Translations under genes and position numbers: made by a program
Notes under the pieces: generated by a model
Told to the model about the DNA's origin: nothing
The model's database searches: none
Seen by the model: only the letters and a program-made list of their open reading frames with translations
In this document: positions 3,347-53,269 of the stretch, in pieces
Position numbering within the stretch: the first letter of the stretch is position 1
How the letters are laid out: each line of letters begins with the position of its first letter
Source: Escherichia phage BP32
Direction: 5' to 3' (one strand)
Sequence record: OR906198.1
DNA length: 64,000 bases

Positions 3347-3928
3347 ATGGCGAGTTTAATTTTTACTTATGCAGCAATGAATGCTGGAAAATCTGCTTCT
3401 CTTTTGACTGCTGCGCATAATTATAAAGAACGTGGAATGAGTGTATTAGTTCTTAAGCCTGCTATTGATACTCGCGATTCTGTCTGTGAAGTCGTTTCTC
3501 GCATTGGAATTAAGCAGGAAGCGAATATTATTACGGATGATATGGATATTTTTGAGTTTTATAAATGGGCTGAAGCACAAAAAGATATTCATTGCGTATT
3601 TGTAGATGAAGCTCAGTTTTTAAAAACTGAACAGGTGCATCAATTAAGCCGAATTGTCGATACATATAATGTTCCTGTTATGGCTTATGGACTAAGGACT
3701 GATTTCGCTGGAAAATTATTTGAAGGTTCTAAAGAACTTTTGGCGATTGCAGATAAACTTATTGAACTAAAGGCAGTTTGTCATTGTGGTAAAAAAGCGA
3801 TTATGACAGCTCGATTAATGGAAGATGGAACACCAGTTAAAGAAGGTAATCAAATTTGTATTGGTGATGAAATTTATGTTTCTTTGTGTAGAAAACATTG
3901 GAATGAATTAACTAAAAAGCTCGGTTAG
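3347..3928 (+). CDS. tk: thymidine kinase
   Basis: 193 aa; P-loop NAGKSAS; C-terminal Cys cluster; sequence recognised as T4 Tk; AAGGTGA RBS. Confidence 0.97.
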   Translation: MASLIFTYAAMNAGKSASLLTAAHNYKERGMSVLVLKPAIDTRDSVCEVVSRIGIKQEANIITDDMDIFEFYKWAEAQKDIHCVFVDEAQFLKTEQVHQLSRIVDTYNVPVMAYGLRTDFAGKLFEGSKELLAIADKLIELKAVCHCGKKAIMTARLMEDGTPVKEGNQICIGDEIYVSLCRKHWNELTKKLG

Positions 3929-3937
3929 TGCAAAAGT

Positions 3938-3945
3938 TATAAATA
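3938..3945 (+). promoter_or_regulatory. T4 late-promoter consensus TATAAATA
   Basis: exact TATAAATA about 25 nt upstream of ATG 3971. Confidence 0.4.
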
Positions 3946-3970
3946 GGTTTATCTAACTAAAGGGGTATAT

Positions 3971-4183
3971 ATGCTACAATTAACTGAAAAGCAACTTCGC
4001 AATCTTACTGTTCTTCAATTAGATGAAATTCGTAGGGAAGTTGGAAATATCATTTCAGCTTTGCGTCGAGAAGTATCACTCAACCAATCTCCGGCAGACT
4101 ATACTAGATTGCGAAATTTTGAAAAATACCTTGATAAAGTTAAGGCCGTGCATCGGCATAAAGTAAATACAGGACAAAAATGA
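3971..4183 (+). CDS. hypothetical protein
   Basis: 70 aa; AAGGGG RBS. Confidence 0.55.
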
Positions 4184-4195
4184 TAGGAGGCCTTT

Positions 4196-4489
4196 ATGGC
4201 CTTAAAAGCAACGGCACTATTTGCCATGCTAGGATTAGCGTTTGCTTTATCTCCACCAATTGAAGCGAATGTCGATCCTCATTTTGATAAATTTATGGAA
4301 TCTGGTATTAGACATGTTTATATGCTTTTTGAAAATAAAAGCGTAGAATCATCTGAACAGTTCTATAGTTTTATGCGAACGACCTATAAAAATGACCCGT
4401 GCTCTTCCGATTTTGAATGTATAGAACGAGGCGCGGAGATGGCACAATCATACGCTAGAATTATGAACATTAAATTGGAGACTGAATGA
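4196..4489 (+). CDS. hypothetical secreted protein
   Basis: 97 aa with cleavable-looking signal peptide; GGAGG RBS. Confidence 0.6.
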   Translation: MALKATALFAMLGLAFALSPPIEANVDPHFDKFMESGIRHVYMLFENKSVESSEQFYSFMRTTYKNDPCSSDFECIERGAEMAQSYARIMNIKLETE

Positions 4490-4872
4490 AATTCAGCGAC
4501 TTTTCACAAAGTGGAAAACCTTCAAAGGCAGATGAATATTTAGGTTTATTAATGGCTGCGCAAGCTTATTTTCATTCTGCGCATTTTGAAACTAAAAGTT
4601 ATGCTAGACACAAAGCATACGATTTTATTTTCTCTGAGTTGCCAGATTTGATTGACAAATTTGGTGAGCAGTATTTGGGGTATTCTGGTAGAAAATACAC
4701 ACCTTCAATTCCAGATGCTAGTAAACTTCCTACCGACACAATTAAAATGATTGATCGTATACTAGACCAATCTAACAGCATTTATAAAGAAATGCCTCCA
4801 GCCATTCAAAGCACGATAGATGATATTACTGGGATGTTTTACCAGAGTAAATATCTTCTTTCCCTCGAATAA
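4486..4872 (+). CDS. hypothetical protein
   Basis: 128 aa; GGAG RBS; start overlaps upstream stop. Confidence 0.6.
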
Positions 4873-4876
4873 CATT

Positions 4877-4899
4877 AGTCTCCTTCGGGAGACTTTTTT
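4877..4899 (+). terminator. rho-independent terminator hairpin (TTCG loop)
   Basis: agtctcc-ttcg-ggagact followed by T6. Confidence 0.75.
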
Positions 4900-4909
4900 C
4901 ATTTTACCG

Positions 4910-4939
4910 GTTTACTTTCCATTTGAGCTGTGATACTAT
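4910..4939 (+). promoter_or_regulatory. T4-type early promoter
   Basis: gtttac...17-18 bp...tactat directly after the terminator. Confidence 0.6.
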
Positions 4940-4967
4940 ACAACCATCGGATAAAGAGGAGAACATC

Positions 4968-5156
4968 ATGAAAATTGAAGCACTCAATCAAGAAGGAAAT
5001 ATCTACGTCATCATTAATGGTGATTTTTTCGTCGACATGGATGAAGTTACTAGTGAAGAACTTGTAGAACTTCTTAAGAAACGTTATGATATGTGTGATG
5101 AAGCTGCAACTCACATGGCGTGTGCAATATTCTCTCTTTCATATGTGGTGGAATAA
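4968..5156 (+). CDS. hypothetical acidic protein (62 aa)
   Basis: AGAGGAGA RBS before ATG 4968. Confidence 0.6.
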
Positions 5157-5886: not shown

Positions 5887-6441
5887 GTGAGTGAGTCGAA
5901 GAGAATCAATATGAAACGATTAGTATTAGAAGTTAGTCCGCTTTTTGGTGAATTGGCTATAGAAAAAGTAAATAACATGTATCGTTTGACGCAAGAAGAC
6001 GATATGCTATATTTTACGCCTAGTGAAATCATTCATTTAACCCAAATTGAATATCCTTATACCGATAAAATAGTAAGCATCAATGATGAGCATAAAATTC
6101 ATTTTTGTTCTTTATGCTCGGGATTTAGTATTAAAAGTGAGTCAATATGCTTATCAATTGATAATTGGGATAATTTTATAACTAAGATTAAATATTTTTA
6201 TTATTCTAATGAAAGGAAACATAGTTTAAAATGGTTTAAAAAATGTAATGCTATTATTACTAACACTTGCAATCAGAACGGTGAAACTATTTTAAACGTA
6301 TCAAAATGTTATGAAGATGGAGATGTCTTAACTATTCGTCAATCGGTAAATGATGTTAATGTTGTTGTATTAAACAAAGAAGAAGCTGTTTTATTAAAGA
6401 CTTATCTTGATTCTGTCATTCCAACTATGATTTCAAAGTGA
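5887..6441 (+). CDS. hypothetical protein, paralog A
   Basis: 184 aa; C-terminal segment similar to the next ORF; start uncertain (GTG 5887 or ATG 5911). Confidence 0.55.
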   Translation: MSESKRINMKRLVLEVSPLFGELAIEKVNNMYRLTQEDDMLYFTPSEIIHLTQIEYPYTDKIVSINDEHKIHFCSLCSGFSIKSESICLSIDNWDNFITKIKYFYYSNERKHSLKWFKKCNAIITNTCNQNGETILNVSKCYEDGDVLTIRQSVNDVNVVVLNKEEAVLLKTYLDSVIPTMISK

Positions 6442-6447
6442 GGAAAT

Positions 6448-6969
6448 ATGTTTATTTCAAGTGGAAGTGGTTTAATTCGTGTTGAATTTAAAAATGACAT
6501 CTTCCTTATTCAAGGAGATGATATTATTAAAATGAGTTATGACGAAATCAAGAAAATTTGTCACGCTCTTGAAAGTCATGGAAAGGAAAATGCTACTATC
6601 GATATAGGTGATTTATGGGTAACGCTTTATGAAGTATCCGAAGGATTTAACATTGAAGATGAAAATAACATTTTAGCTATTGATAAAAGGACCGATTTGT
6701 TTGATGTGTTAAAAGTTTATGAACAGTCAAACGGTGGAAGAAAAGCCGTATTGATTTATCAAAAACCGCATTCATGTGGAACTGCTTCAATCATTTCAAA
6801 TATTGAAGATGAAACTGATACCTATATGTGTGTTTTGAAAGCTGGTGGTGACCGTCATCCGGATTTTATTTCTATTCGTCAAAACAATGGAGAAATTTCA
6901 TTATCAAAATCAGAAGCTGAAGCTATGATTAAGTATTTAACAACTGTTACACCTTCAATGAAAGGATAA
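6448..6969 (+). CDS. hypothetical protein, paralog B
   Basis: 173 aa; C-terminus resembles that of the preceding ORF. Confidence 0.55.
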   Translation: MFISSGSGLIRVEFKNDIFLIQGDDIIKMSYDEIKKICHALESHGKENATIDIGDLWVTLYEVSEGFNIEDENNILAIDKRTDLFDVLKVYEQSNGGRKAVLIYQKPHSCGTASIISNIEDETDTYMCVLKAGGDRHPDFISIRQNNGEISLSKSEAEAMIKYLTTVTPSMKG

Positions 6970-8506: not shown

Positions 8507-8540
8507 ACAACTATCAACTGATACGGATTTGGAGAATAAA

Positions 8541-9509
8541 ATGAAAACTGTAACTATCAATAAAGGTATCTACTTCGGTAAAGAAATCTCTGGAACTTTT
8601 GAGCTCTTAGGCGAATGGTTCCCAGATAATGCTCCGGTAGATGCACAAGGAGATGGTAAAGTTTTTGTTGAAATTGACGGTAAACGTCGCGGTGTTTGGG
8701 TTTACAAATCAGATATTTCATATGATGGTGTAAAAGTTGAAGAAGTTAAAGAATCATATGAAGATATGAAAACCCGCATTAATAAAAGATTTAATGTTAT
8801 GGGAATGATGACGAATGGTATTATTAATGGAAATATTCGTTCATTAATTATCTCTGGCGCAGCAGGTATTGGTAAAACGTATTCTTTAGATAAAGCTTTA
8901 AATAAAGCAAATGATATTGGATACATTGAATATAAAAGCATTAATGGTAAAATCTCTGGTATTGGTCTTTATGAGCAGCTTTGGAATAATCGTGAAGAGA
9001 ACTCTGTCCTTTTGATTGATGATGTGGATGTTTTCTCTGATATGGACATTCTTAATCTTCTGAAAGCTGCTCTGGACACTGGAGAGACCCGTAAAGTCTG
9101 CTGGAGCACTGCATCTTCTTACTTAGAAGAAAAAGGCATTGACCGTGAGTTTGAATTTAAAGGAACGATTGTTTTTATCACAAACGTTGATATTGACCGC
9201 GAATTAGACCGTGGTACTAAACTTGCCCCACACTTACAAGCATTAGTGTCCCGCTCAGTTTATTTAGATTTGGGTGTTCACACTAATGAAGAAATTATGG
9301 TCAGGGTTGAAGATGTTATTCTTTCAACCGACATGATGCAAAAGCGCGGTCTTTCTGATGAAGAAACTTATAAAGCATTATCATGGATGAAAGTTAATGT
9401 TAATCGTTTACGCAATGTTTCACTGCGTACTGCTCTTTATCTTGCTGACTTTATTATGACCGACAAAAACGGTTGGGAAGAAATTGCTGAGGTTACTCTT
9501 CTGAAATAA
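8541..9509 (+). CDS. AAA+ ATPase (Walker A/B)
   Basis: Walker A GAAGIGKTY, Walker B LLIDDVD; GGAGA RBS; the listed start at 8373 was rejected because it reads through the terminator and promoter. Confidence 0.7.
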   Translation: MKTVTINKGIYFGKEISGTFELLGEWFPDNAPVDAQGDGKVFVEIDGKRRGVWVYKSDISYDGVKVEEVKESYEDMKTRINKRFNVMGMMTNGIINGNIRSLIISGAAGIGKTYSLDKALNKANDIGYIEYKSINGKISGIGLYEQLWNNREENSVLLIDDVDVFSDMDILNLLKAALDTGETRKVCWSTASSYLEEKGIDREFEFKGTIVFITNVDIDRELDRGTKLAPHLQALVSRSVYLDLGVHTNEEIMVRVEDVILSTDMMQKRGLSDEETYKALSWMKVNVNRLRNVSLRTALYLADFIMTDKNGWEEIAEVTLLK

Positions 9510-9973: not shown

Positions 9974-10501
9974 ATGAACGCTAAAGATATTTTCAACTTG
10001 GTAAATTACAACGATGGTAAATTTAAATCTGAAGCACAAAGCAAGTTCTTTAACGACATCTCAATCGGAGGTGAAATCACTGTTGATGGAGGACAAATTT
10101 ACAAATCCCGTTGGAATTGGATCGTTATTATTGATGAGATCGGTATTGTAGAAATTTACAAGAATACGAATAAAAATAGTACATTACACTGGTCTCGTGA
10201 TACTAACGAACAGTACAAAAAGGATAAAGCATCTAAATTATCTCGTGTAACTCAAGAAGATATTGAGTTCATCAAGAAAGATATTTTAATGTATGATAAC
10301 TTAATTGCTGAAGAGCAAGCTGTTATTGATAAATTTGACGAGATTAAAGCTTCTCGTGAAATTCCTGATTTTATGAAAGAATCAGTAAATGAACGATACA
10401 CTCTCATTTCAGAGCGTATTGAAACTTACAAAAAGCAAAGAGCTGAACGCCAAAATACTCTTCGGAAGTTTGAAGAACGGTTAAAGACGGTACTCGCATA
10501 A
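9974..10501 (+). CDS. hypothetical protein with C-terminal coiled coil
   Basis: GGAGG RBS; 175 aa. Confidence 0.6.
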   Translation: MNAKDIFNLVNYNDGKFKSEAQSKFFNDISIGGEITVDGGQIYKSRWNWIVIIDEIGIVEIYKNTNKNSTLHWSRDTNEQYKKDKASKLSRVTQEDIEFIKKDILMYDNLIAEEQAVIDKFDEIKASREIPDFMKESVNERYTLISERIETYKKQRAERQNTLRKFEERLKTVLA

Positions 10502-10556: not shown

Positions 10557-10964
10557 ATGAAACAGCTGATAATTAAAAGATTGAATTTATTGATATGTTG
10601 TTTATGTGTAGTAGTTGCATATGGTTATTACGCAATTAATGATTATATGCATTATAAAGATTATGATGTTACTGTAGTTAATACCATTACAGGAACACAA
10701 GGAAAAGGGTCTAGTTTATCGTTTATTGCCGTATATGAACTCAAAGACGGTTATAGATTTAGTGAATATATTTCACCAGAGATGTATTCGTCAATAGAAA
10801 AAGGTGATAATATTACTGTAAGTTTACGTCCTTTCGACGTAAAACAGACATTGTTTGATAATATTGTTTGGTTCTTTGGAATGGTATTAGTTCAATCTGT
10901 GTGTGGTGCTTATATAGTCTTTTCCATCATATTCTGTGTATTTAGTAAAATTGAAATTGAGTGA
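10557..10964 (+). CDS. membrane protein (N- and C-terminal TM helices)
   Basis: hydrophobic segments flanking a soluble domain. Confidence 0.55.
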   Translation: MKQLIIKRLNLLICCLCVVVAYGYYAINDYMHYKDYDVTVVNTITGTQGKGSSLSFIAVYELKDGYRFSEYISPEMYSSIEKGDNITVSLRPFDVKQTLFDNIVWFFGMVLVQSVCGAYIVFSIIFCVFSKIEIE

Positions 10965-10971
10965 GGAAAAT

Positions 10972-11859
10972 ATGTCAGTCGTAATTAATAATGTCAATGC
11001 AGTAATTAAATCTTTAGTTAATAAAAAATCAAATGAATGGACTGTACTTCAACACGACGAGTCAGATAAATTTTTTCATAAATTTAACCCAGTACTAAAT
11101 TTAAATGTTATTGATAAAGATGTTCACGCCGAAATTTTAGATAAGTTTAAAGTTGATATTGGATTTGGATTAGAAAAACATTTACAACGAACAAACGGGT
11201 CTGGAATGCTTTTATCTAATCGCATCATGAAAGCCCTTAATAAAATTGGAGCGTTGTCTCGCATTAACGCGAGTGAAATTCTTCGCAATTATAATAAAGG
11301 ATATGACCTTTATGGTCGACTAATGCCGAAATTATCATTTGACCAAATGATCGCAGATTTGTGGGAAAATCAACGACGATTATTAGCATTAGGCGCTCGA
11401 TTAGCTAAAGGTCTAGATAAACAAATGATTTTTAAAACTAATAATACAGAAGACCTTAAATGCTTTAAATTTAGTACTCGTGGAGATGATTATTACGTCA
11501 GAGCTCGCTCTACAGATTATGTTAATATGGGGCATCATCTCTGTTTAGCTTTTGAAATTTTAAAAGAAGCTGGAACATTAGAATATGTGTCTGGTGCTAA
11601 ATGTCCGATTGGTTCAAGTTGTATTTTAATTTATCGCCCGGATGAATCCAGTTCAACTAAATTGCCTACAAAACCTGTACCAGTTCATAGTAATGAAAAA
11701 CATTCTGAACAAATTGATTATTTTAATAAGCAAATTGAAGAGCTGAATATTTCTATTCAACAATATGACGATGAAATCTTTAGACTATCCGGATTGAGTA
11801 GTAAAGCTAAATCTGAACGTGAAAAATTAATTAAAATTGTTGATTTACTTAAATCTTAA
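10972..11859 (+). CDS. hypothetical protein, paralog family member 1 (C-terminal coiled coil)
   Basis: GAGGAAAA RBS; 295 aa; shares central region and coiled-coil tail with the next three ORFs. Confidence 0.6.
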   Translation: MSVVINNVNAVIKSLVNKKSNEWTVLQHDESDKFFHKFNPVLNLNVIDKDVHAEILDKFKVDIGFGLEKHLQRTNGSGMLLSNRIMKALNKIGALSRINASEILRNYNKGYDLYGRLMPKLSFDQMIADLWENQRRLLALGARLAKGLDKQMIFKTNNTEDLKCFKFSTRGDDYYVRARSTDYVNMGHHLCLAFEILKEAGTLEYVSGAKCPIGSSCILIYRPDESSSTKLPTKPVPVHSNEKHSEQIDYFNKQIEELNISIQQYDDEIFRLSGLSSKAKSEREKLIKIVDLLKS

Positions 11860-11867
11860 GGAACACC

Positions 11868-12896
11868 ATGAAAACTCGTTCTCAAATTGAAGATATGGTT
11901 CGTAATGCCAGTTATACTCGTGATGTTATGACATTTTTGTGTGAAAATAATTTAGACCTTAATAAAGTTAATTGTTCCATTCACGCCTTTAAACATCTGA
12001 ATAGCAGTGAATGGGTGCGTAATTTTAGCGAAGCAGGGTATATTACACAAATGACGGCTCGTGAGCAGCTCACTGATTTCTGTAAAACTATCGATTATAA
12101 AAATCCTCTATTTGTTCAAGGCGTTGGTCAAAGTAAGGTCGATTTATCATCTGGATTTTTTAATCCAAATCATTATCGTATTGAATGGAGATTTATTGCT
12201 CTGTTCCGCAAGCAACTAAAACAAATTTTATCAACTGCGAGTCGATTAAAAGGTTCTGATATTAACTTAAAGAATCTGAAATTTGATGGTTATACTCTTC
12301 AGATGGAAGTAAGACCATTAAAAGAAAATAATAGAACTGCACGAATTAGCTTTAAACCTAATACAAAAAATTCTCTTTCAATTTGTGAATGCCTTAAATC
12401 GCAGTTGACAGAAGCATTTAAGTATATGGATGTTGTTGCTGCTGTCCAGTCTAAGATTTCACAGCGTTTCGAACTATTTAAATTAGACACAACAACATAT
12501 AAACTTGATATGATCGTTTCATTTAAATACGATTTTTTGAGAAAGGACGAAGTCACACAAGAGAAAAAGCAGGAAGTGCAAGATAACTTAAATTTAAATT
12601 TATCCAATTACTCATCAAACGATCCTAAATTTTGGATGTATAGTTCAGGTAATAAAGATGCATGGAAATTCAATAAAGTGAATTTTCTTCCTATTGAAAA
12701 TCCGAGTCTTAAACCTGTTGAAAAATGGCATGCAGATGCGATTGAAAAGTCTATCAAGGCAGTAGATGATGAACTCGTTAAAGCAACTAATGAAGTGTTA
12801 GAAGCTGAAAAGATGCTAGAAAAAGCTCAAGAAAAAGTCAAAAATCTCACGAAGCAACGTTCTAAACTGAACAATGCACTAAATGCACTGAACTAG
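11868..12896 (+). CDS. hypothetical protein, paralog family member 2
   Basis: 342 aa; AAGGA RBS; coiled-coil C-terminus. Confidence 0.6.
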   Translation: MKTRSQIEDMVRNASYTRDVMTFLCENNLDLNKVNCSIHAFKHLNSSEWVRNFSEAGYITQMTAREQLTDFCKTIDYKNPLFVQGVGQSKVDLSSGFFNPNHYRIEWRFIALFRKQLKQILSTASRLKGSDINLKNLKFDGYTLQMEVRPLKENNRTARISFKPNTKNSLSICECLKSQLTEAFKYMDVVAAVQSKISQRFELFKLDTTTYKLDMIVSFKYDFLRKDEVTQEKKQEVQDNLNLNLSNYSSNDPKFWMYSSGNKDAWKFNKVNFLPIENPSLKPVEKWHADAIEKSIKAVDDELVKATNEVLEAEKMLEKAQEKVKNLTKQRSKLNNALNALN

Positions 12897-12925
12897 TTTA
12901 CTTTACCACAGGGATGTGGTATAAT
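12896..12925 (+). promoter_or_regulatory. T4-type early promoter
   Basis: gtttactttaccacagggatgtggtataat; one mismatch from the promoter at 58099. Confidence 0.7.
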
Positions 12926-12953
12926 GTTCTTACTTTCTACTGAGGAGATTAAT

Positions 12954-13955
12954 ATGACTCGTAACGAATATATCAAATCATTCAATAGCGTTATTGATGA
13001 TAAAGCTATACCGATGTTTGGCCAAAATAGCGTTCTTTCTATTATCAATCAATGGCTCAATAGTGTTGATGCAGGTATTGTTTCTTCTACTAAATTTATT
13101 CATGAAATTCGTAAAATTTCTAGTCGTGTAGATAAAGATGTTATCAAGAAAACCTTTAAAGAGTCTCGTCTTCTTTCATATTTGGTTAATCGGGATATTC
13201 TTGGTAATTTTGGGAAAGAAATTAAACGAACCAAAGATGTAGTAGGATATAATTGGTTCGGTGATGTTAATACTTATCATCTTAATACTAAAGAAGACCC
13301 TGAGAATATTTTTACTCGTCGTTGGGTTAGTGAATTTAGGAGTTTTACGAAGCAAATTCTAAAATCAGCTTCTAAATTATGTTATGGCGATTATCGTCAA
13401 ATTCATCCCTTAGCTGATGATATGATTATAGCAGAAGAATATGAGCTTGATAAAAACAAAGTAGCTATTTTTATTAATTACAGATTTTTTACACCAGAAA
13501 CTAACCAAAGGAATATTAATAAATTTTTCTCAATTGCTAGCACTATAACTCGTCAATTAGAGACTGCACTACTTTGTATGGAAACGGTAGAAAATATTCA
13601 TACTTATCCTTTTAAGAATATGTGCGGCTGGGAAGGATATAAAATTGTAGTTAGTCTTCGTGAAGTGAAATGTGCTTATTCACCGACTGATAAAGAAATT
13701 TACCAACAAAAATGCGAAGAAATTGTGAATACTCCTAAAGAAGAAACTACCCTTGAGGAACTAATGGAATGTCTTGATGATTCGCCTGAACCGGTAGAAA
13801 TTCGTCCAGAAGTTATTGCATTAGAAAAAGCTTATAAAGAAGTTTTAGAAATTTCTAATAAAGCGCAGAAAGAATATGAGAAGGCTAAAAGGATTTGGGA
13901 AGAATCTGTTAATCGCTTGGATCGTCTTGAACAAGCTTTACAGTTAATTAAGTAA
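12954..13955 (+). CDS. hypothetical protein, paralog family member 3
   Basis: GAGGAG RBS; 333 aa; FRSFTKQILKSASKL resembles FRKQLKQILSTASRL of member 2. Confidence 0.6.
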   Translation: MTRNEYIKSFNSVIDDKAIPMFGQNSVLSIINQWLNSVDAGIVSSTKFIHEIRKISSRVDKDVIKKTFKESRLLSYLVNRDILGNFGKEIKRTKDVVGYNWFGDVNTYHLNTKEDPENIFTRRWVSEFRSFTKQILKSASKLCYGDYRQIHPLADDMIIAEEYELDKNKVAIFINYRFFTPETNQRNINKFFSIASTITRQLETALLCMETVENIHTYPFKNMCGWEGYKIVVSLREVKCAYSPTDKEIYQQKCEEIVNTPKEETTLEELMECLDDSPEPVEIRPEVIALEKAYKEVLEISNKAQKEYEKAKRIWEESVNRLDRLEQALQLIK

Positions 13956-14007
13956 TTTAAAGCCAAGGATGGCTCGGAGTATAAATCATTAACTAAGTGA
14001 GAAGAAC

Positions 14008-14937
14008 ATGAAAACTCGTAAACATTATATTGATTATTTTGACAGTCTTATTACTAAACATCGTAATTATCAGATCGGGCACAGAGCAGTAATCAATAAT
14101 ATTCTTCGTGATTTCCTTCAATATGTTGGCCAGGAAAATCATATCTGTAAAGATACTCAAAACGCTTATTCTCATTCGTTGGGCAATTTGCTTCAATGGT
14201 TTAAACGTTCTCGTCTGTTATCTTCTACTGTAGCTAGTGATAACATTAAAAACTTTATGAAGCCGAGCTTCATTAAATCTGCGACATCTATAACCGATTT
14301 GGTTGAATTTACTATTGTTAACGATGTTAAAAAGACCCATTTGGCTGATTGGTTATCTACCATTCCTGAAACTAAATTTGCTGATAAATTCGCTTGTCAA
14401 TTCAATGACCAAGTGAATATGCTTTTTAAGCATGCTCGTAAACTATTTACCGCGGGTGATGACCGTACAAATACAGTTCATGTTAAGGACTGGGTTATTG
14501 CTGATGAAGTAACACACAAGCCAGGTGGTTCATCAGTATTAATTAATATCCAGGTTCCTTATTATTACTCACGTAATCTCGGCACCATGACAGCTAGAGA
14601 AATTAATAAGCATAACAAAACTATTCGTTCGTTGTCTTATAAACTCTGCACGATGGTGGAGATGATGGACGTAGTGGAAATGTATGACGAAACCGAAGAT
14701 AATGGTTCAATGTTATACAGTTCACGCATTCTAATTAAACTGAAGAACCCTAATACGTATAAGCCAGTTGTAAAAGAACCTAAAATAGAAAAGGTTGATA
14801 ACTTGAGCGAAGAACGTGAATACCTCAAATCTCGACTAGTTGAAGTTGAAGCTCAGATTGCCGAACACACTAAATTGTTAAAAGCTCTTAATGCAAAAGC
14901 AAATGGTTTACGTAATGCTATTGAGGTATTGAAATGA
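14008..14937 (+). CDS. hypothetical protein, paralog family member 4
   Basis: 309 aa; N-terminus MKTRKHY resembles member 2; coiled-coil C-terminus. Confidence 0.6.
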   Translation: MKTRKHYIDYFDSLITKHRNYQIGHRAVINNILRDFLQYVGQENHICKDTQNAYSHSLGNLLQWFKRSRLLSSTVASDNIKNFMKPSFIKSATSITDLVEFTIVNDVKKTHLADWLSTIPETKFADKFACQFNDQVNMLFKHARKLFTAGDDRTNTVHVKDWVIADEVTHKPGGSSVLINIQVPYYYSRNLGTMTAREINKHNKTIRSLSYKLCTMVEMMDVVEMYDETEDNGSMLYSSRILIKLKNPNTYKPVVKEPKIEKVDNLSEEREYLKSRLVEVEAQIAEHTKLLKALNAKANGLRNAIEVLK

Positions 14938-15251
14938 AAAAGCGTCTATTAGAAGATATTGCAGCTTCAAGTAATTCCAGTCTAATTAAAATTATTATGG
15001 CTGGTGAAGAAGACGATTTAGAAATGCGTGGAAAGATTCATGGTTGTGACGATCTAGACTTTAAACCTCCTGCTTGGGATGCCATTATGGCTATGGTTGA
15101 ACGCCGCGAAAGGGCTTCTAAGAATGTTCCGAACTGCCCAAAATGTGGTACTAAACAGGTCCAATTGGTCAATTGGCATAAACCAGAACTTGAATATAAA
15201 TGTCGTCATTGCAAACACCGATTTAACCGAGAAGAAAATGCCCAAGCGTAA
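14934..15251 (+). CDS. zinc-ribbon protein
   Basis: C-terminal CPKCG...(14)...CRHCKH; 105 aa. Confidence 0.55.
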
Positions 15252-15480
15252 AGAATATATGGAGATTGCTGAAAAAGCAGTCCGTGAATTAGCAATAGCT
15301 TATTATAATGAACACGGTAAATTTCCTGATAGATATAGCGTTCTTAAATCTGCTTTAACTCGTTCATATAAAAATATGCTATCAGAAGTAAGTGATATTA
15401 TATACAAACATAAAGAACAAACGGGCCAAAGTCTTGATTATGACGAGACTTTTAAACAAGTACTAGGAATTAAGGAATAA
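15238..15480 (+). CDS. hypothetical protein; start uncertain
   Basis: in-frame ATGs at 15238 and 15259; weak RBS. Confidence 0.4.
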
Positions 15481-15481
15481 T

Positions 15482-15745
15482 ATGTTTAAAGTATATGGTT
15501 ATGATAGCAACATCCACAAATGTGTGTATTGCGATAATGCAAAACGTCTTTTGACTGTGAAGAAACAGCCGTTTGAATTTATCAACATTATGCCGGAAAA
15601 AGGTGTTTTTGATGATGAGAAAATTGCTGAACTTCTGACTAAACTAGGTCGTGACACTCAAATCGGATTGACGATGCCTCAGGTATTTGCTCCTGATGGA
15701 AGTCATATTGGTGGATTTGACCAATTGCGGGAATACTTTAAATGA
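15482..15745 (+). CDS. nrdC: thioredoxin/glutaredoxin for ribonucleotide reductase
   Basis: 87 aa; CVYC active site; sequence recognised as T4 NrdC. Confidence 0.95.
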   Translation: MFKVYGYDSNIHKCVYCDNAKRLLTVKKQPFEFINIMPEKGVFDDEKIAELLTKLGRDTQIGLTMPQVFAPDGSHIGGFDQLREYFK

Positions 15746-16140: not shown

Positions 16141-16461
16141 ATGACTATTGAAAATAAATTAGATGTTGATGCAGTTCTGAGTGAAATCATCGAAGACCAT
16201 GATGCATTTTCAGAAAACTATGATTTCGATTTTTCGGATTATCTTAAACCTGTCGAAATAGAAGACTGGGTACAAGATGGCAAATGCCAATATCGGCAGT
16301 GTGTTTATTTTAGCCCAAAACATAATGTACATGTTTCCGTAAATGAATGCCGTTCAGGTTCTTACCATTCTGACTGGTATTATGCAGTTCCGACTGTTGA
16401 ATTAGTCGAGCCCCGTGAACGTGTAGTAACTCAGACAATACGAGAATGGATTACGCTATAA
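16141..16461 (+). CDS. hypothetical acidic protein
   Basis: 106 aa ORF. Confidence 0.5.
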   Translation: MTIENKLDVDAVLSEIIEDHDAFSENYDFDFSDYLKPVEIEDWVQDGKCQYRQCVYFSPKHNVHVSVNECRSGSYHSDWYYAVPTVELVEPRERVVTQTIREWITL

Positions 16462-52022: not shown

Positions 52023-52705
52023 TGTTTGATTTTATTATAGATTTTGAAACAATGGGAAGTGGTGAAAAGGCAGCTGTTATTGATTTGGCTGTTATTGCCT
52101 TTGACCCTAATCCAGAAGTAGTTGAAACATTCGATGAATTAGTTTCGCGCGGCATTAAAATCAAATTTGATTTAAAAAGTCAAAAAGGACATCGTCTTTT
52201 TACTAAAAGCACTATCGAATGGTGGAAAAATCAGTCTCCTGAAGCTCGAAAAAATATTGCACCGTCAGATGAAGATGTAAGCACTATCGATGGTATTGTA
52301 AAATTTAATGATTACATCAATGCACATAACATCGATCCTTGGAAATCTCAAGGCTGGTGCCGTGGAATGTCGTTTGATTTTCCAATTTTAGTCGATCTCA
52401 TTCGCGATATTCAACGTCTTAATGGCGTTTCTGAGAATGAACTTGACACATTTAAGTTAGAACCGTGTAAATTCTGGAATCAGCGTGATATTCGTACCAG
52501 AATTGAAGCACTTCTCCTTGTTCGTGATATGACCACGTGTCCTCTTCCAAAAGGAACTTTAGATGGATTCGTTGCACATGATTCTATTCATGACTGTGCG
52601 AAAGACATCCTGATGATGAAGTATGCTTTGCGATATGCTATGGGTCTTGAAGATGCTCCGTCAGAGGAAGAGTGCGATCCTCTATCTCTTCCAACAAAAC
52701 GATAA
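52022..52705 (+). CDS. dexA: exonuclease A (DnaQ-like 3-5 exonuclease)
   Basis: 227 aa; DFET motif; sequence recognised. Confidence 0.9.
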   Translation: MFDFIIDFETMGSGEKAAVIDLAVIAFDPNPEVVETFDELVSRGIKIKFDLKSQKGHRLFTKSTIEWWKNQSPEARKNIAPSDEDVSTIDGIVKFNDYINAHNIDPWKSQGWCRGMSFDFPILVDLIRDIQRLNGVSENELDTFKLEPCKFWNQRDIRTRIEALLLVRDMTTCPLPKGTLDGFVAHDSIHDCAKDILMMKYALRYAMGLEDAPSEEECDPLSLPTKR

Positions 52706-52711
52706 AAAGTT

Positions 52712-52741
52712 GTTTACTTCCTCGGTTAGTTGTGGTATTAT
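52712..52741 (+). promoter_or_regulatory. T4-type early promoter
   Basis: gtttacttcctcggttagttgtggtattat. Confidence 0.7.
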
Positions 52742-52768
52742 AACACCATAGCTACTGAGGATAATAAA

Positions 52769-53269
52769 ATGAAAATTTATCGTGTTGAATCATCTTTTAG
52801 TATTCTTAATTGTGAAGATGCTATAACAATACGTCGAAATCTTTGTGTTCAAATAACGCCATACAGGAGTATAATAGATTCATGGAGCGAAGAGTGGTTA
52901 TTACACGTAGGTTATGACAGACCTAATTTTATGCATCATAGCGATGATAATAAAAGAATTCCTTTACCACACGAAGATAAACTATTAGTTAAAAACGCTA
53001 ATATAGTAATTAATACTAAGTTCAAGAAAGATTATGTTGGAGTAGAATATCATATTCCAGGATGGTTTATAGCTCTTTATCATTTTGCTTTCGCTAGTGA
53101 ATATGATATGATGAGATGGTTCACACGAGAAGAGCGGGAAGAATTATCTTCTAAAGGATTTTATCTCGCTGTATACGAAGTTTCTGAAGATGAAGTTATC
53201 ATTGGCGGGCACCAAGTAATGTTCCGCAAATCGCATGCTGAACTCATAGATTTTATTGAAATGAGATAA
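52769..53269 (+). CDS. hypothetical protein (166 aa; motB.2 position)
   Basis: GAGGA RBS. Confidence 0.55.
   Translation: MKIYRVESSFSILNCEDAITIRRNLCVQITPYRSIIDSWSEEWLLHVGYDRPNFMHHSDDNKRIPLPHEDKLLVKNANIVINTKFKKDYVGVEYHIPGWFIALYHFAFASEYDMMRWFTREEREELSSKGFYLAVYEVSEDEVIIGGHQVMFRKSHAELIDFIEMR

Follow-up and report, generated by a model that had tools for sequence, protein, structure and literature searches.

A tandem array of four probably homologous early genes in a T4-like phage as a candidate counter-defence locus

Introduction

The described phage gene closest to the locus considered here is T4 nrdC.5. An evolved T4 clone carrying compensatory deletions is unable to infect ECOR17, and infection is regained either upon deletion of the host dsr1 gene or when T4 nrdC.5 is supplied on a plasmid in Dsr1-carrying cells (Srikant, Guegler and Laub, eLife 2022, PMC9391042). 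Dsr1 is a SIR2-domain defence protein that depletes NAD+ (PMC9391042), and its TPR sensor is reported in a 2026 preprint to recognise phage major capsid proteins, which are late products. In a 64,000-nucleotide stretch of Escherichia phage BP32 (sequence record OR906198.1), referred to here as the window, the ortholog of nrdC.5 is the second of four adjacent genes encoding proteins of ~300 amino acids (aa), which are followed by a gene for a zinc-ribbon protein. The analysis presented here favours, with a probability of about 0.6, a reading in which the four products are diverged paralogs that are made early, are dispensable on laboratory hosts and act in host range or counter-defence, with the nrdC.5 product acting on Dsr1.

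Two further systems offer points of comparison. DSAD1 of the SPbeta phage neutralises the SIR2-NADase DSR2 at its sensor region, in competition with the late structural protein that triggers it (PMC10981675, PMC11087589). Among the T4 internal proteins, IPI counters GmrSD and IPIII counters a system of ECOR17 (PMC9391042).

Results

Identity of the array genes

The window belongs to a T4-like phage of the genus Tequatrovirus (Straboviridae). Its region 10900-15300 shows ~95% nucleotide identity to Escherichia phage Pu-Krd-SF4 and matched 656 phage records. On the basis of synteny and protein identity, the five open reading frames (ORFs) of 10972-15251 are the orthologs of T4 nrdC.6, nrdC.5, nrdC.4, nrdC.3 and nrdC.2, whose products are called here A, B, C, D and Z (Table 1). 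Protein identity to T4 is 80-93% for nrdC.2, nrdC.4, nrdC.5 and nrdC.6, and only ~61% for the nrdC.3 allele. B is 92.4% identical to T4 NrdC.5 over 342 aa, occupies the same slot between nrdC.6 and nrdC.4, and matches PF23882 over residues 1-342 (E value of 8e-122; 406.9 bits, with a curated cut-off of 30) as well as phrog_2351 (E value of 2.5e-166). A is ~93% identical to NrdC.6 of T4 and W143 and shows a full-length match to phrog_2257 (E value of 1.3e-149, covering residues 1-295); PF26899 is carried by 109 of the 109 homolog clusters of A. C is 93% identical to T4 NrdC.4 and matches phrog_1435 (E value of 1e-166), with PF26897 annotated on its near homologs. D matches phrog_1435 as well (E value of 4e-115), and C and D thus fall under one full-length family model.

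These are not new genes, given that T4 annotations have listed them as hypothetical for decades. The nrdC.2-nrdC.6 genes are already known and their locus is partly characterised, and the four-way paralogy described below is a modest new point. In the T4 RefSeq record (NC_000866), nrdC.6 (52066-52893 of the record) encodes 275 aa, without the conserved C-terminal helix; the product has 295-296 aa in the eight remaining Tequatrovirus genomes, and 891 nucleotides are given for the gene in a recent annotation of T4. The short RefSeq form reflects a frameshift introduced by sequencing or else a strain polymorphism carried by the reference.

Homology of the four large proteins

The earlier note, made from the sequence alone, had described the four large ORFs as similar in size, with a common MKTR start in members 2 and 4 and shared internal motifs. 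All of this is borne out: the sizes are close (Table 1), B and D start with MKTR and C with MTR, and the motif pair FRKQLKQILSTASRLKG (B) and FRSFTKQILKSASKLCYG (C) is present in the sequence. Pairwise BLASTP gives one significant pair, C and D (26% identity over 226 aa; E value of 5e-9). The B-C match rests on a 24-residue motif (E value of 0.006), and BLASTP of A against B, C and D returned no significant match. Used alone, pairwise BLASTP would wrongly reject the family, because C and D are the sole pair that it links. A, C and D are 15-25% identical to NrdC.5 and belong to other Pfam and PHROG families.

Profile-profile comparison with hhalign, using family profiles built from orthologs of four genera, with the A family aligned independently, reveals similarity beyond chance even where BLASTP does not. 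The C-D comparison has a probability of 97%. Comparison of B with the combined C and D profile gives a score of 79.6 (probability of 96.9%, E value of 1.3e-10, calculated over 252 columns), against a null of 14.2 +/- 2.5 with a maximum of 25.4 in 100 column shuffles. The A family aligns with the combined B, C and D profile with a score of 46.0 (probability of 82%, E value of 1e-5, calculated over 129 columns), against a null of 13.2 +/- 2.2 with a maximum of 19.5 in 100 column shuffles (z score of ~15). The aligned part of A encompasses residues 59-193, that is, the central globular region and not the tail.

Searches of the 66 long ORFs of the window with a hidden Markov model (HMM) of each family return an array member as the best non-self match, except for the A HMM, where an array member ranks second; no further copy of the family was found among these 66 ORFs. 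With the HMM of B, C and D combined, A is the best non-self match in the window, but with an E value of 0.024. Outside the window, a Marfavirus member (P0193, at EK29 4060-5007) matches both the B HMM and the HMM of C and D.

Taken together, the profile comparisons and structural models support the view that nrdC.3, nrdC.4, nrdC.5 and nrdC.6 are probably homologous and form one strongly diverged family. We conclude that C and D are the youngest pair and that A is the most distant member. The four genes are therefore conserved T4 genes, as the alternative named in the earlier note would have them, but not unrelated ones. The product of nrdC.8, which has a helical tail too, was considered as a truncated family member and rejected, its hhalign scores of 15-19 lying within the null range. 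A word-index homology search with a mixed alignment of B, C and D retrieved mainly B and C-type proteins of Dhakavirus and missed many known members.

Predicted structures and C-terminal tails

The AlphaFold2 (AF2) models of A and B (predicted local distance difference test, pLDDT, of 78 and 70, respectively) show the same order of elements: a helical N-terminus, a helix pair, a beta-hairpin, a helix, a second beta-hairpin, a disordered linker and a long C-terminal helix. The sequence-profile alignment pairs every structural element of A with the corresponding one of B. In BFVD, the A and B models share matches to uncharacterised Straboviridae proteins of Klebsiella phage Mineola (3.9e-4 with the A model and 3.3e-8 with the B model) and Erwinia phage Cronus (4.5e-4 and 1.5e-7). 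The A model also matches a 308-aa protein of a Yersinia Tequatrovirus (2.6e-3), which is taken as an nrdC.3 ortholog as judged by its length and host phage only. Neither model matches a solved fold, and a sequence search of the PDB found nothing for any of the four proteins. In Pfam, NCBIfam and PHROGs no functional domain was found in A-D, the matches being families of unknown function and sub-threshold coiled-coil noise.

The architecture that the four proteins probably share comprises a helical N-terminal region, a conserved amphipathic helix pair with an FRxxxKxIL..A.RL motif, a core of two beta-hairpins with a helix between them, a disordered linker and a C-terminal amphipathic helix with a terminal L..A(I/L)..LK. 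The C-terminal 45-57 residues of A-D are almost devoid of proline and glycine, and their heptad hydrophobic periodicity exceeds that of shuffled sequences: the observed maximum is attained in no more than 4.5% of shuffles, with the top-scoring window of C being internal and not in the tail. The AF2 tail helices span residues 242-271 and 277-294 in A and 286-341 in B. The coiled-coil tails noticed from the sequence alone thus stand as a heptad tail in each protein, but not as a single straight coil in A, where AF2 predicts a broken helix or a hairpin. The tail of the A family is among its most conserved parts across genera. As to charge, A, B and D are basic (isoelectric points, pI, of 8.9-9.2) and C is acidic (pI of 6.0).

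Evidence for a role in counter-defence

The host-interaction or anti-defence role suggested in the earlier note is supported directly for nrdC.5, through its published anti-Dsr1 activity (PMC9391042), and by extension for the other three genes. Genome-reduced T4 tolerates loss of an nrdC.1-6 fragment, and nrdC.2-nrdC.11 score as non-essential on a laboratory host in the T4 and Bas37 transposon libraries of the HIDEN-SEQ preprint. In that preprint, Septu is inhibited by T4 nrdC.1 and Druantia III by bas37_0203. The bas37_0203 gene was considered as one of the four array genes and rejected, being a 528-nucleotide gene at the nrdC.8 position in the HIDEN-SEQ gene table and hence the nrdC.8 ortholog. 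T6 Gp49.2 inhibits OLD (PMC13096335). Because the window has close orthologs of nrdC.8, nrdC.1 and gp49.2 (Table 1), the array looks like the middle of an anti-defence island that extends over the nrdC.8-49.2 stretch.

The phenotype of nrdC.5, the dispensability of the array and its inhibitor neighbours thus argue together for an anti-defence role. Likewise, family membership combined with the published role of nrdC.5 makes nrdC.3, nrdC.4 and nrdC.6 good counter-defence candidates. An Ocr-type mechanism of DNA mimicry was considered and rejected, since A, B and D are basic (pI of ~9).

Sequence diversification and selection

Gene-wide ratios of non-synonymous to synonymous substitution rates (dN/dS), obtained from nine Tequatrovirus genomes, are 0.14-0.27 for the four array genes, compared with 0.02 for nrdC, 0.06 for nrdC.8 and 0.05-0.09 over nrdC.8-nrdC.10. 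The nrdC.10 product (98.6% mean identity, dN/dS of 0.09) is in this respect unlike the array just downstream, whereas nrdC.7 (0.18) and gp49.2 (0.16) lie in the same range as the array. The array proteins evolve faster than most of their neighbours and are still under overall purifying selection.

Diversification is also seen in alleles and copies. Within Tequatrovirus, nrdC.3 occurs as two allele classes of ~61% identity, in which both termini are conserved and the middle is replaced; D shares 78% identity with the Mosigvirus copy, compared with ~61% with the T4 allele. Escherichia phage CJY920 (Tequatrovirus) lacks nrdC.4 and carries, at ~5944-6927, the promoter and start region of nrdC.4 fused to the body of nrdC.3. 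The metagenomic protein P0056 is a chimera of residues 146-274 of nrdC.5 and residues 129-309 of nrdC.3. Together with a copy number of 1-4 between genera, these losses, chimeras and allele classes confirm the picture of a diversified tandem family. Of the arms race proposed for it, the turnover of alleles and copies is observed and positive selection is not: with gene-wide dN/dS below 1, the term rests on turnover and not on demonstrated positive selection.

Sliding windows of the ratio of non-synonymous to synonymous polymorphism (pN/pS) resolve these constraints along the proteins. The helix pair is tightly constrained (pN/pS of ~0 over A 91-150 and B 106-180), and replacement hot spots fall at the equivalent, predicted second beta-hairpin in B (181-210; pN/pS of 0.55), C (181-210; 1.7) and D (196-225; 1.1), with few substitutions in each. 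This second beta-hairpin could be a target-binding surface.

Distribution across T4-like genera

The combined HMM of B, C and D gave 19 matches at E values of 0.001 or lower among 1.84 billion representative proteins searched with HMMER. The matches inspected are proteins of T4-like phages or fragments thereof, apart from one spurious repeat protein. Seven genera besides Tequatrovirus were checked, with one or few genomes each. Compared with the four large copies of Tequatrovirus, Dhakavirus and Gaprivervirus have three (A, B-type and C-type), Mosigvirus has two (A-type and D-type), and Marfavirus, Moonvirus and Karamvirus have one recognisable family member of ~315-355 aa. The Moonvirus copy matches the profile of B, C and D, and the Karamvirus copy, which is unannotated in its record, matches the A profile. 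Aeromonas phage Aes508 (Tulanevirus) has one gene of ~300 aa at the position, a 301-aa ORF upstream of an nrdC.2-like gene that gave no significant match to the family HMMs. Counting Tequatrovirus, seven of the eight T4-like genera checked accordingly have a recognisable member 5' of their nrdC.2-like gene. The best explanation is that the family is restricted to T4-like phages (Straboviridae) and was anciently duplicated.

In Enterobacter phage myPSH1140, a 356-aa ORF (3844-4914), unannotated in the GenBank record, lies directly 5' of an nrdC.2-like gene; it gives a weak, collinear match to the nrdC.6-family HMM (E value of 5.5e-5 in a small search).

The zinc-ribbon gene nrdC.2

The zinc-ribbon ORF that closes the array was recognised correctly at the outset: four cysteines arranged as C68-x2-C71-x18-C90-x2-C93 are read from the sequence of Z. 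Z is 80% identical to T4 NrdC.2 and matches phrog_1474 (E value of 3e-44). Against curated zinc-ribbon families no match rises above cut-off, the sub-threshold matches being to Cas12f TNB (22.7 bits, cut-off of 26.3), Zn_ribbon_8 (22.5, cut-off of 34.4) and TIGR02605 (22.8, cut-off of 31.3); zinc ribbons of the TFIIS/TFS type are weakly matched as well. The part of Z that is kept in distant homologs is residues 48-100, the half with the CxxC knuckles. Z homologs occur in 1112 phage records, a far wider spread than that of the array families.

The start codon of Z overlaps the stop codon of D (ATGA). Indeed, an nrdC.2-like gene lies immediately 3' of the last ~300-aa gene in every genus examined, usually with such a stop/start overlap, and this conserved coupling suggests that NrdC.2 is a partner or accessory of the last paralog. 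The nrdC.2 alleles (105, 122 or 129 aa) are mosaic and their grouping differs from that of the nrdC.3 classes, which points to recombination breakpoints between both genes.

Promoter-like elements and neighbouring genes

An early promoter had been noticed inside the array at 12896. A consensus match is found there (-35 GTTTAC, a 17-bp spacer, -10 TATAAT and an upstream TG), and its position is conserved in nine of nine Tequatrovirus genomes, T4 included; the site is also present between the equivalent genes of Gaprivervirus and Dhakavirus. It is therefore retained as a putative T4-type early promoter. The hairpin CCACAGGGATGTGG lies within its spacer (12904-12921), with a GGGA/AGGA loop similar to that of a hairpin upstream of nrdC.3.

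In the C-D intergenic region (13935-13986), a GCTTTA-N12-TAATTT element resembles a MotA-box middle promoter. Upstream of nrdC.3 are also the hairpin GCCAAGGATGGC (13962-13973) and a late-promoter-like TATAAAT (13980-13986). Across the Tequatrovirus genomes checked these elements are for the most part retained, although TATAAAT has single-base changes in three genomes.

Table 1. Array genes, promoter-like site and neighbouring genes in the window (positions of the 64,000-nucleotide stretch)
Feature	Coordinates	Strand	Description
nrdC.10 ortholog	8538-9509		Walker A motif GAAGIGKT
nrdC.8 ortholog (context, outside the array family)	9974..10501	+	98% identity to T4 nrdC.8
nrdC.7 ortholog	10557-10964		Small predicted membrane protein, between nrdC.8 and the array
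Paralog A, nrdC.6 ortholog	10972..11859	+	295 aa; PHROG 2257, newer Pfam PF26899
Paralog B, nrdC.5 ortholog	11868..12896	+	342 aa; Pfam DUF7235/PF23882, PHROG 2351
T4-type early (sigma-70-type) promoter-like site	12896..12925	+	GTTTAC-N17-TGGTATAAT; between B and C
Paralog C, nrdC.4 ortholog	12954..13955	+	333 aa; PHROG 1435, newer Pfam PF26897
Paralog D, nrdC.3 ortholog	14008..14937	+	309 aa; PHROG 1435; class I allele
Z, nrdC.2 ortholog	14934..15251	+	105 aa; four-cysteine zinc-ribbon protein; phrog_1474
nrdC.1 ortholog (context)	15238..15480	+	98% identity to T4 nrdC.1
nrdC, thioredoxin gene	15482-15745		Downstream of nrdC.1
gp49.2 ortholog (context)	16141..16461	+	94% identity to T4 gp49.2

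Discussion

Under the favoured reading, B, being 92% identical to T4 NrdC.5, would share its anti-Dsr1 activity. It would act as a stoichiometric binder, made before the late proteins appear, that occupies or locks Dsr1 at its capsid-sensing TPR sensor or at its SIR2 effector, so that NAD+ would not be depleted. The C-terminal helix may mediate oligomerisation and the variable globular part may confer target specificity, in which case A, C and D would be specificity variants directed against other defence proteins or alleles, with the translationally coupled NrdC.2 as a conserved partner or accessory. A bolder version, which we consider distinctly improbable, takes the array for a modular repertoire in which a constant scaffold of C-terminal helices, possibly docked to NrdC.2, would carry swappable heads, each blocking a different bacterial pattern-recognition protein with a capsid-sensing TPR domain of the Dsr1/Avs7 type and exchanged by recombination at the conserved ends. 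Such swapping of head cassettes between phages would account for the existence of two nrdC.3 allele classes whose termini are conserved, for the chimeras (nrdC.4/nrdC.3 and nrdC.5/nrdC.3) and for a copy number of 1-4.

Several points weigh against the counter-defence reading. On the side of homology, the combined HMM of B, C and D recovers no A-family protein from the 1.84 billion representatives (0 of 19 matches are A-like), and the link of A to the other three rests on an hhalign probability of 82% together with evidence from predicted structures. The B model is itself of moderate confidence (pLDDT of 70), and its alignment held C and D sequences, a possible bias towards a common fold. On the side of function, data exist for one member out of four, nrdC.5, and direct binding to Dsr1 is inferred; moreover, the published test concerned the T4 allele and one Dsr1 allele, that of ECOR17, and B differs at ~8% of its residues. 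The HIDEN-SEQ values are non-significant for nrdC.3-nrdC.6 and their Bas37 orthologs in the accessible part of that preprint, in which the host comparison concerned is not established. The basic character of A, B and D would also fit nucleic-acid binding instead of protein mimicry. As to selection, gene-wide dN/dS is below 1 in all four genes and the hot-spot windows contain few substitutions.

The doubts about homology lead, at their extreme, to the view that the resemblance is superficial, a matter of like size, a generic coiled-coil tail and chance short motifs among unrelated conserved T4 genes. Five of the six pairs are indeed non-significant by BLAST, Pfam and PHROGs keep three separate families, and the failure to retrieve A-family proteins in the large search points the same way. 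However, the profile-profile scores exceed the column-shuffle nulls by 15-26 standard deviations with alignments in the globular part and not in the tail, the order of predicted secondary-structure elements is identical, A and B have structural neighbours in common, and bridging members occupy the same genomic position in other genera, all of which leaves this view very little credence. If the four proteins are paralogs, they may instead be subunits of a single hetero-oligomeric early complex, held together by their C-terminal helices and perhaps by NrdC.2, that serves one function of which evasion of Dsr1 is a read-out. The similar C-terminal helix with L..A(I/L)..LK in all members, the conservation of the A-family tail across genera, the coupling, in every genus examined, of nrdC.2 with the last of the paralogs and the presumed co-transcription of the array genes in one early block are what such a complex would lead one to expect. 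It is nevertheless an unlikely explanation, given that plasmid-borne nrdC.5 alone rescues the deletion phage (whose other nrdC losses are unstated in the accessible part of the report), that copy number varies from 1 to 4 among genera, and that natural phages without nrdC.4 or with nrdC.5/nrdC.3 chimeras exist, which an obligate complex of fixed stoichiometry would tolerate poorly.

The charge of the proteins bears on another explanation, in which they are nucleic-acid-binding early regulators that work with the zinc-ribbon protein in host shut-off or in RNA or DNA transactions and affect Dsr1 indirectly. Besides the basic pI of A, B and D, this would account for a conserved and more widespread zinc-ribbon partner (1112 phage records), for its weak matches to TFIIS/TFS-type and Cas12f TNB zinc ribbons, and for the tight constraint on the helix pair. 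Yet C is acidic, searches of Pfam, NCBIfam, PHROGs and structures turned up no family or fold that binds nucleic acids, the phage can do without the genes on laboratory hosts, and the sole known phenotype is specific to a defence and to a host strain, which together make this explanation doubtful and rather improbable. The counter-defence reading stated at the outset is thus the one that we retain.

If nrdC.3, nrdC.4 and nrdC.6 are diverged copies of nrdC.5, three 'hypothetical' orphans of T4, the most thoroughly studied phage, become testable counter-defence candidates. Most of the T4-like genera examined, among them phages of Klebsiella, Enterobacter and Citrobacter, carry a member or candidate at this position, and what is learned in T4 about specificity could therefore help to predict which hosts a therapeutic phage infects. 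In addition, the locus provides a natural example of counter-defence diversification by duplication, allele replacement and chimera formation. What is new here is the four-way family, the presence of a member upstream of an nrdC.2-like gene in seven of eight genera and the picture of turnover; the system as such is not of a new kind.

Comparison with known systems

The closest described counterpart is T4 NrdC.5 (DUF7235), of which B is the ortholog over its full length and at the same position, its allele differing at ~8% of residues. A, C and D compare with it as diverged paralogs that are assigned to other Pfam and PHROG families. DSAD1 shares no sequence or fold similarity with the array proteins in the PDB sequence and structure searches; by analogy, it may serve as a working model for how NrdC.5 acts on Dsr1.

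The neighbouring inhibitors, the nrdC.8 ortholog (Druantia III), nrdC.1 (Septu) and gp49.2 (OLD), belong to the same early dispensable block and have the same type of function. Unlike the array proteins, these inhibitors are small, and they have no relationship to the array family; nrdC.8 is far more conserved than the array (dN/dS of 0.06), whereas gp49.2 (0.16) falls in its range.

The T4 internal proteins IPI, IPII and IPIII offer the broadest parallel. Like the array proteins, they are related to one another, diversify fast and are dispensable, they combine a conserved module with a variable body, and they counter different defences; they too vary between phages by presence or absence and by replacement. 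They differ from the array in that they are unrelated in sequence and are packaged and injected by means of a capsid-targeting sequence, whereas expression of the nrdC array, from putative early promoters, would follow injection, and it is the C-terminal helix that forms its conserved module.

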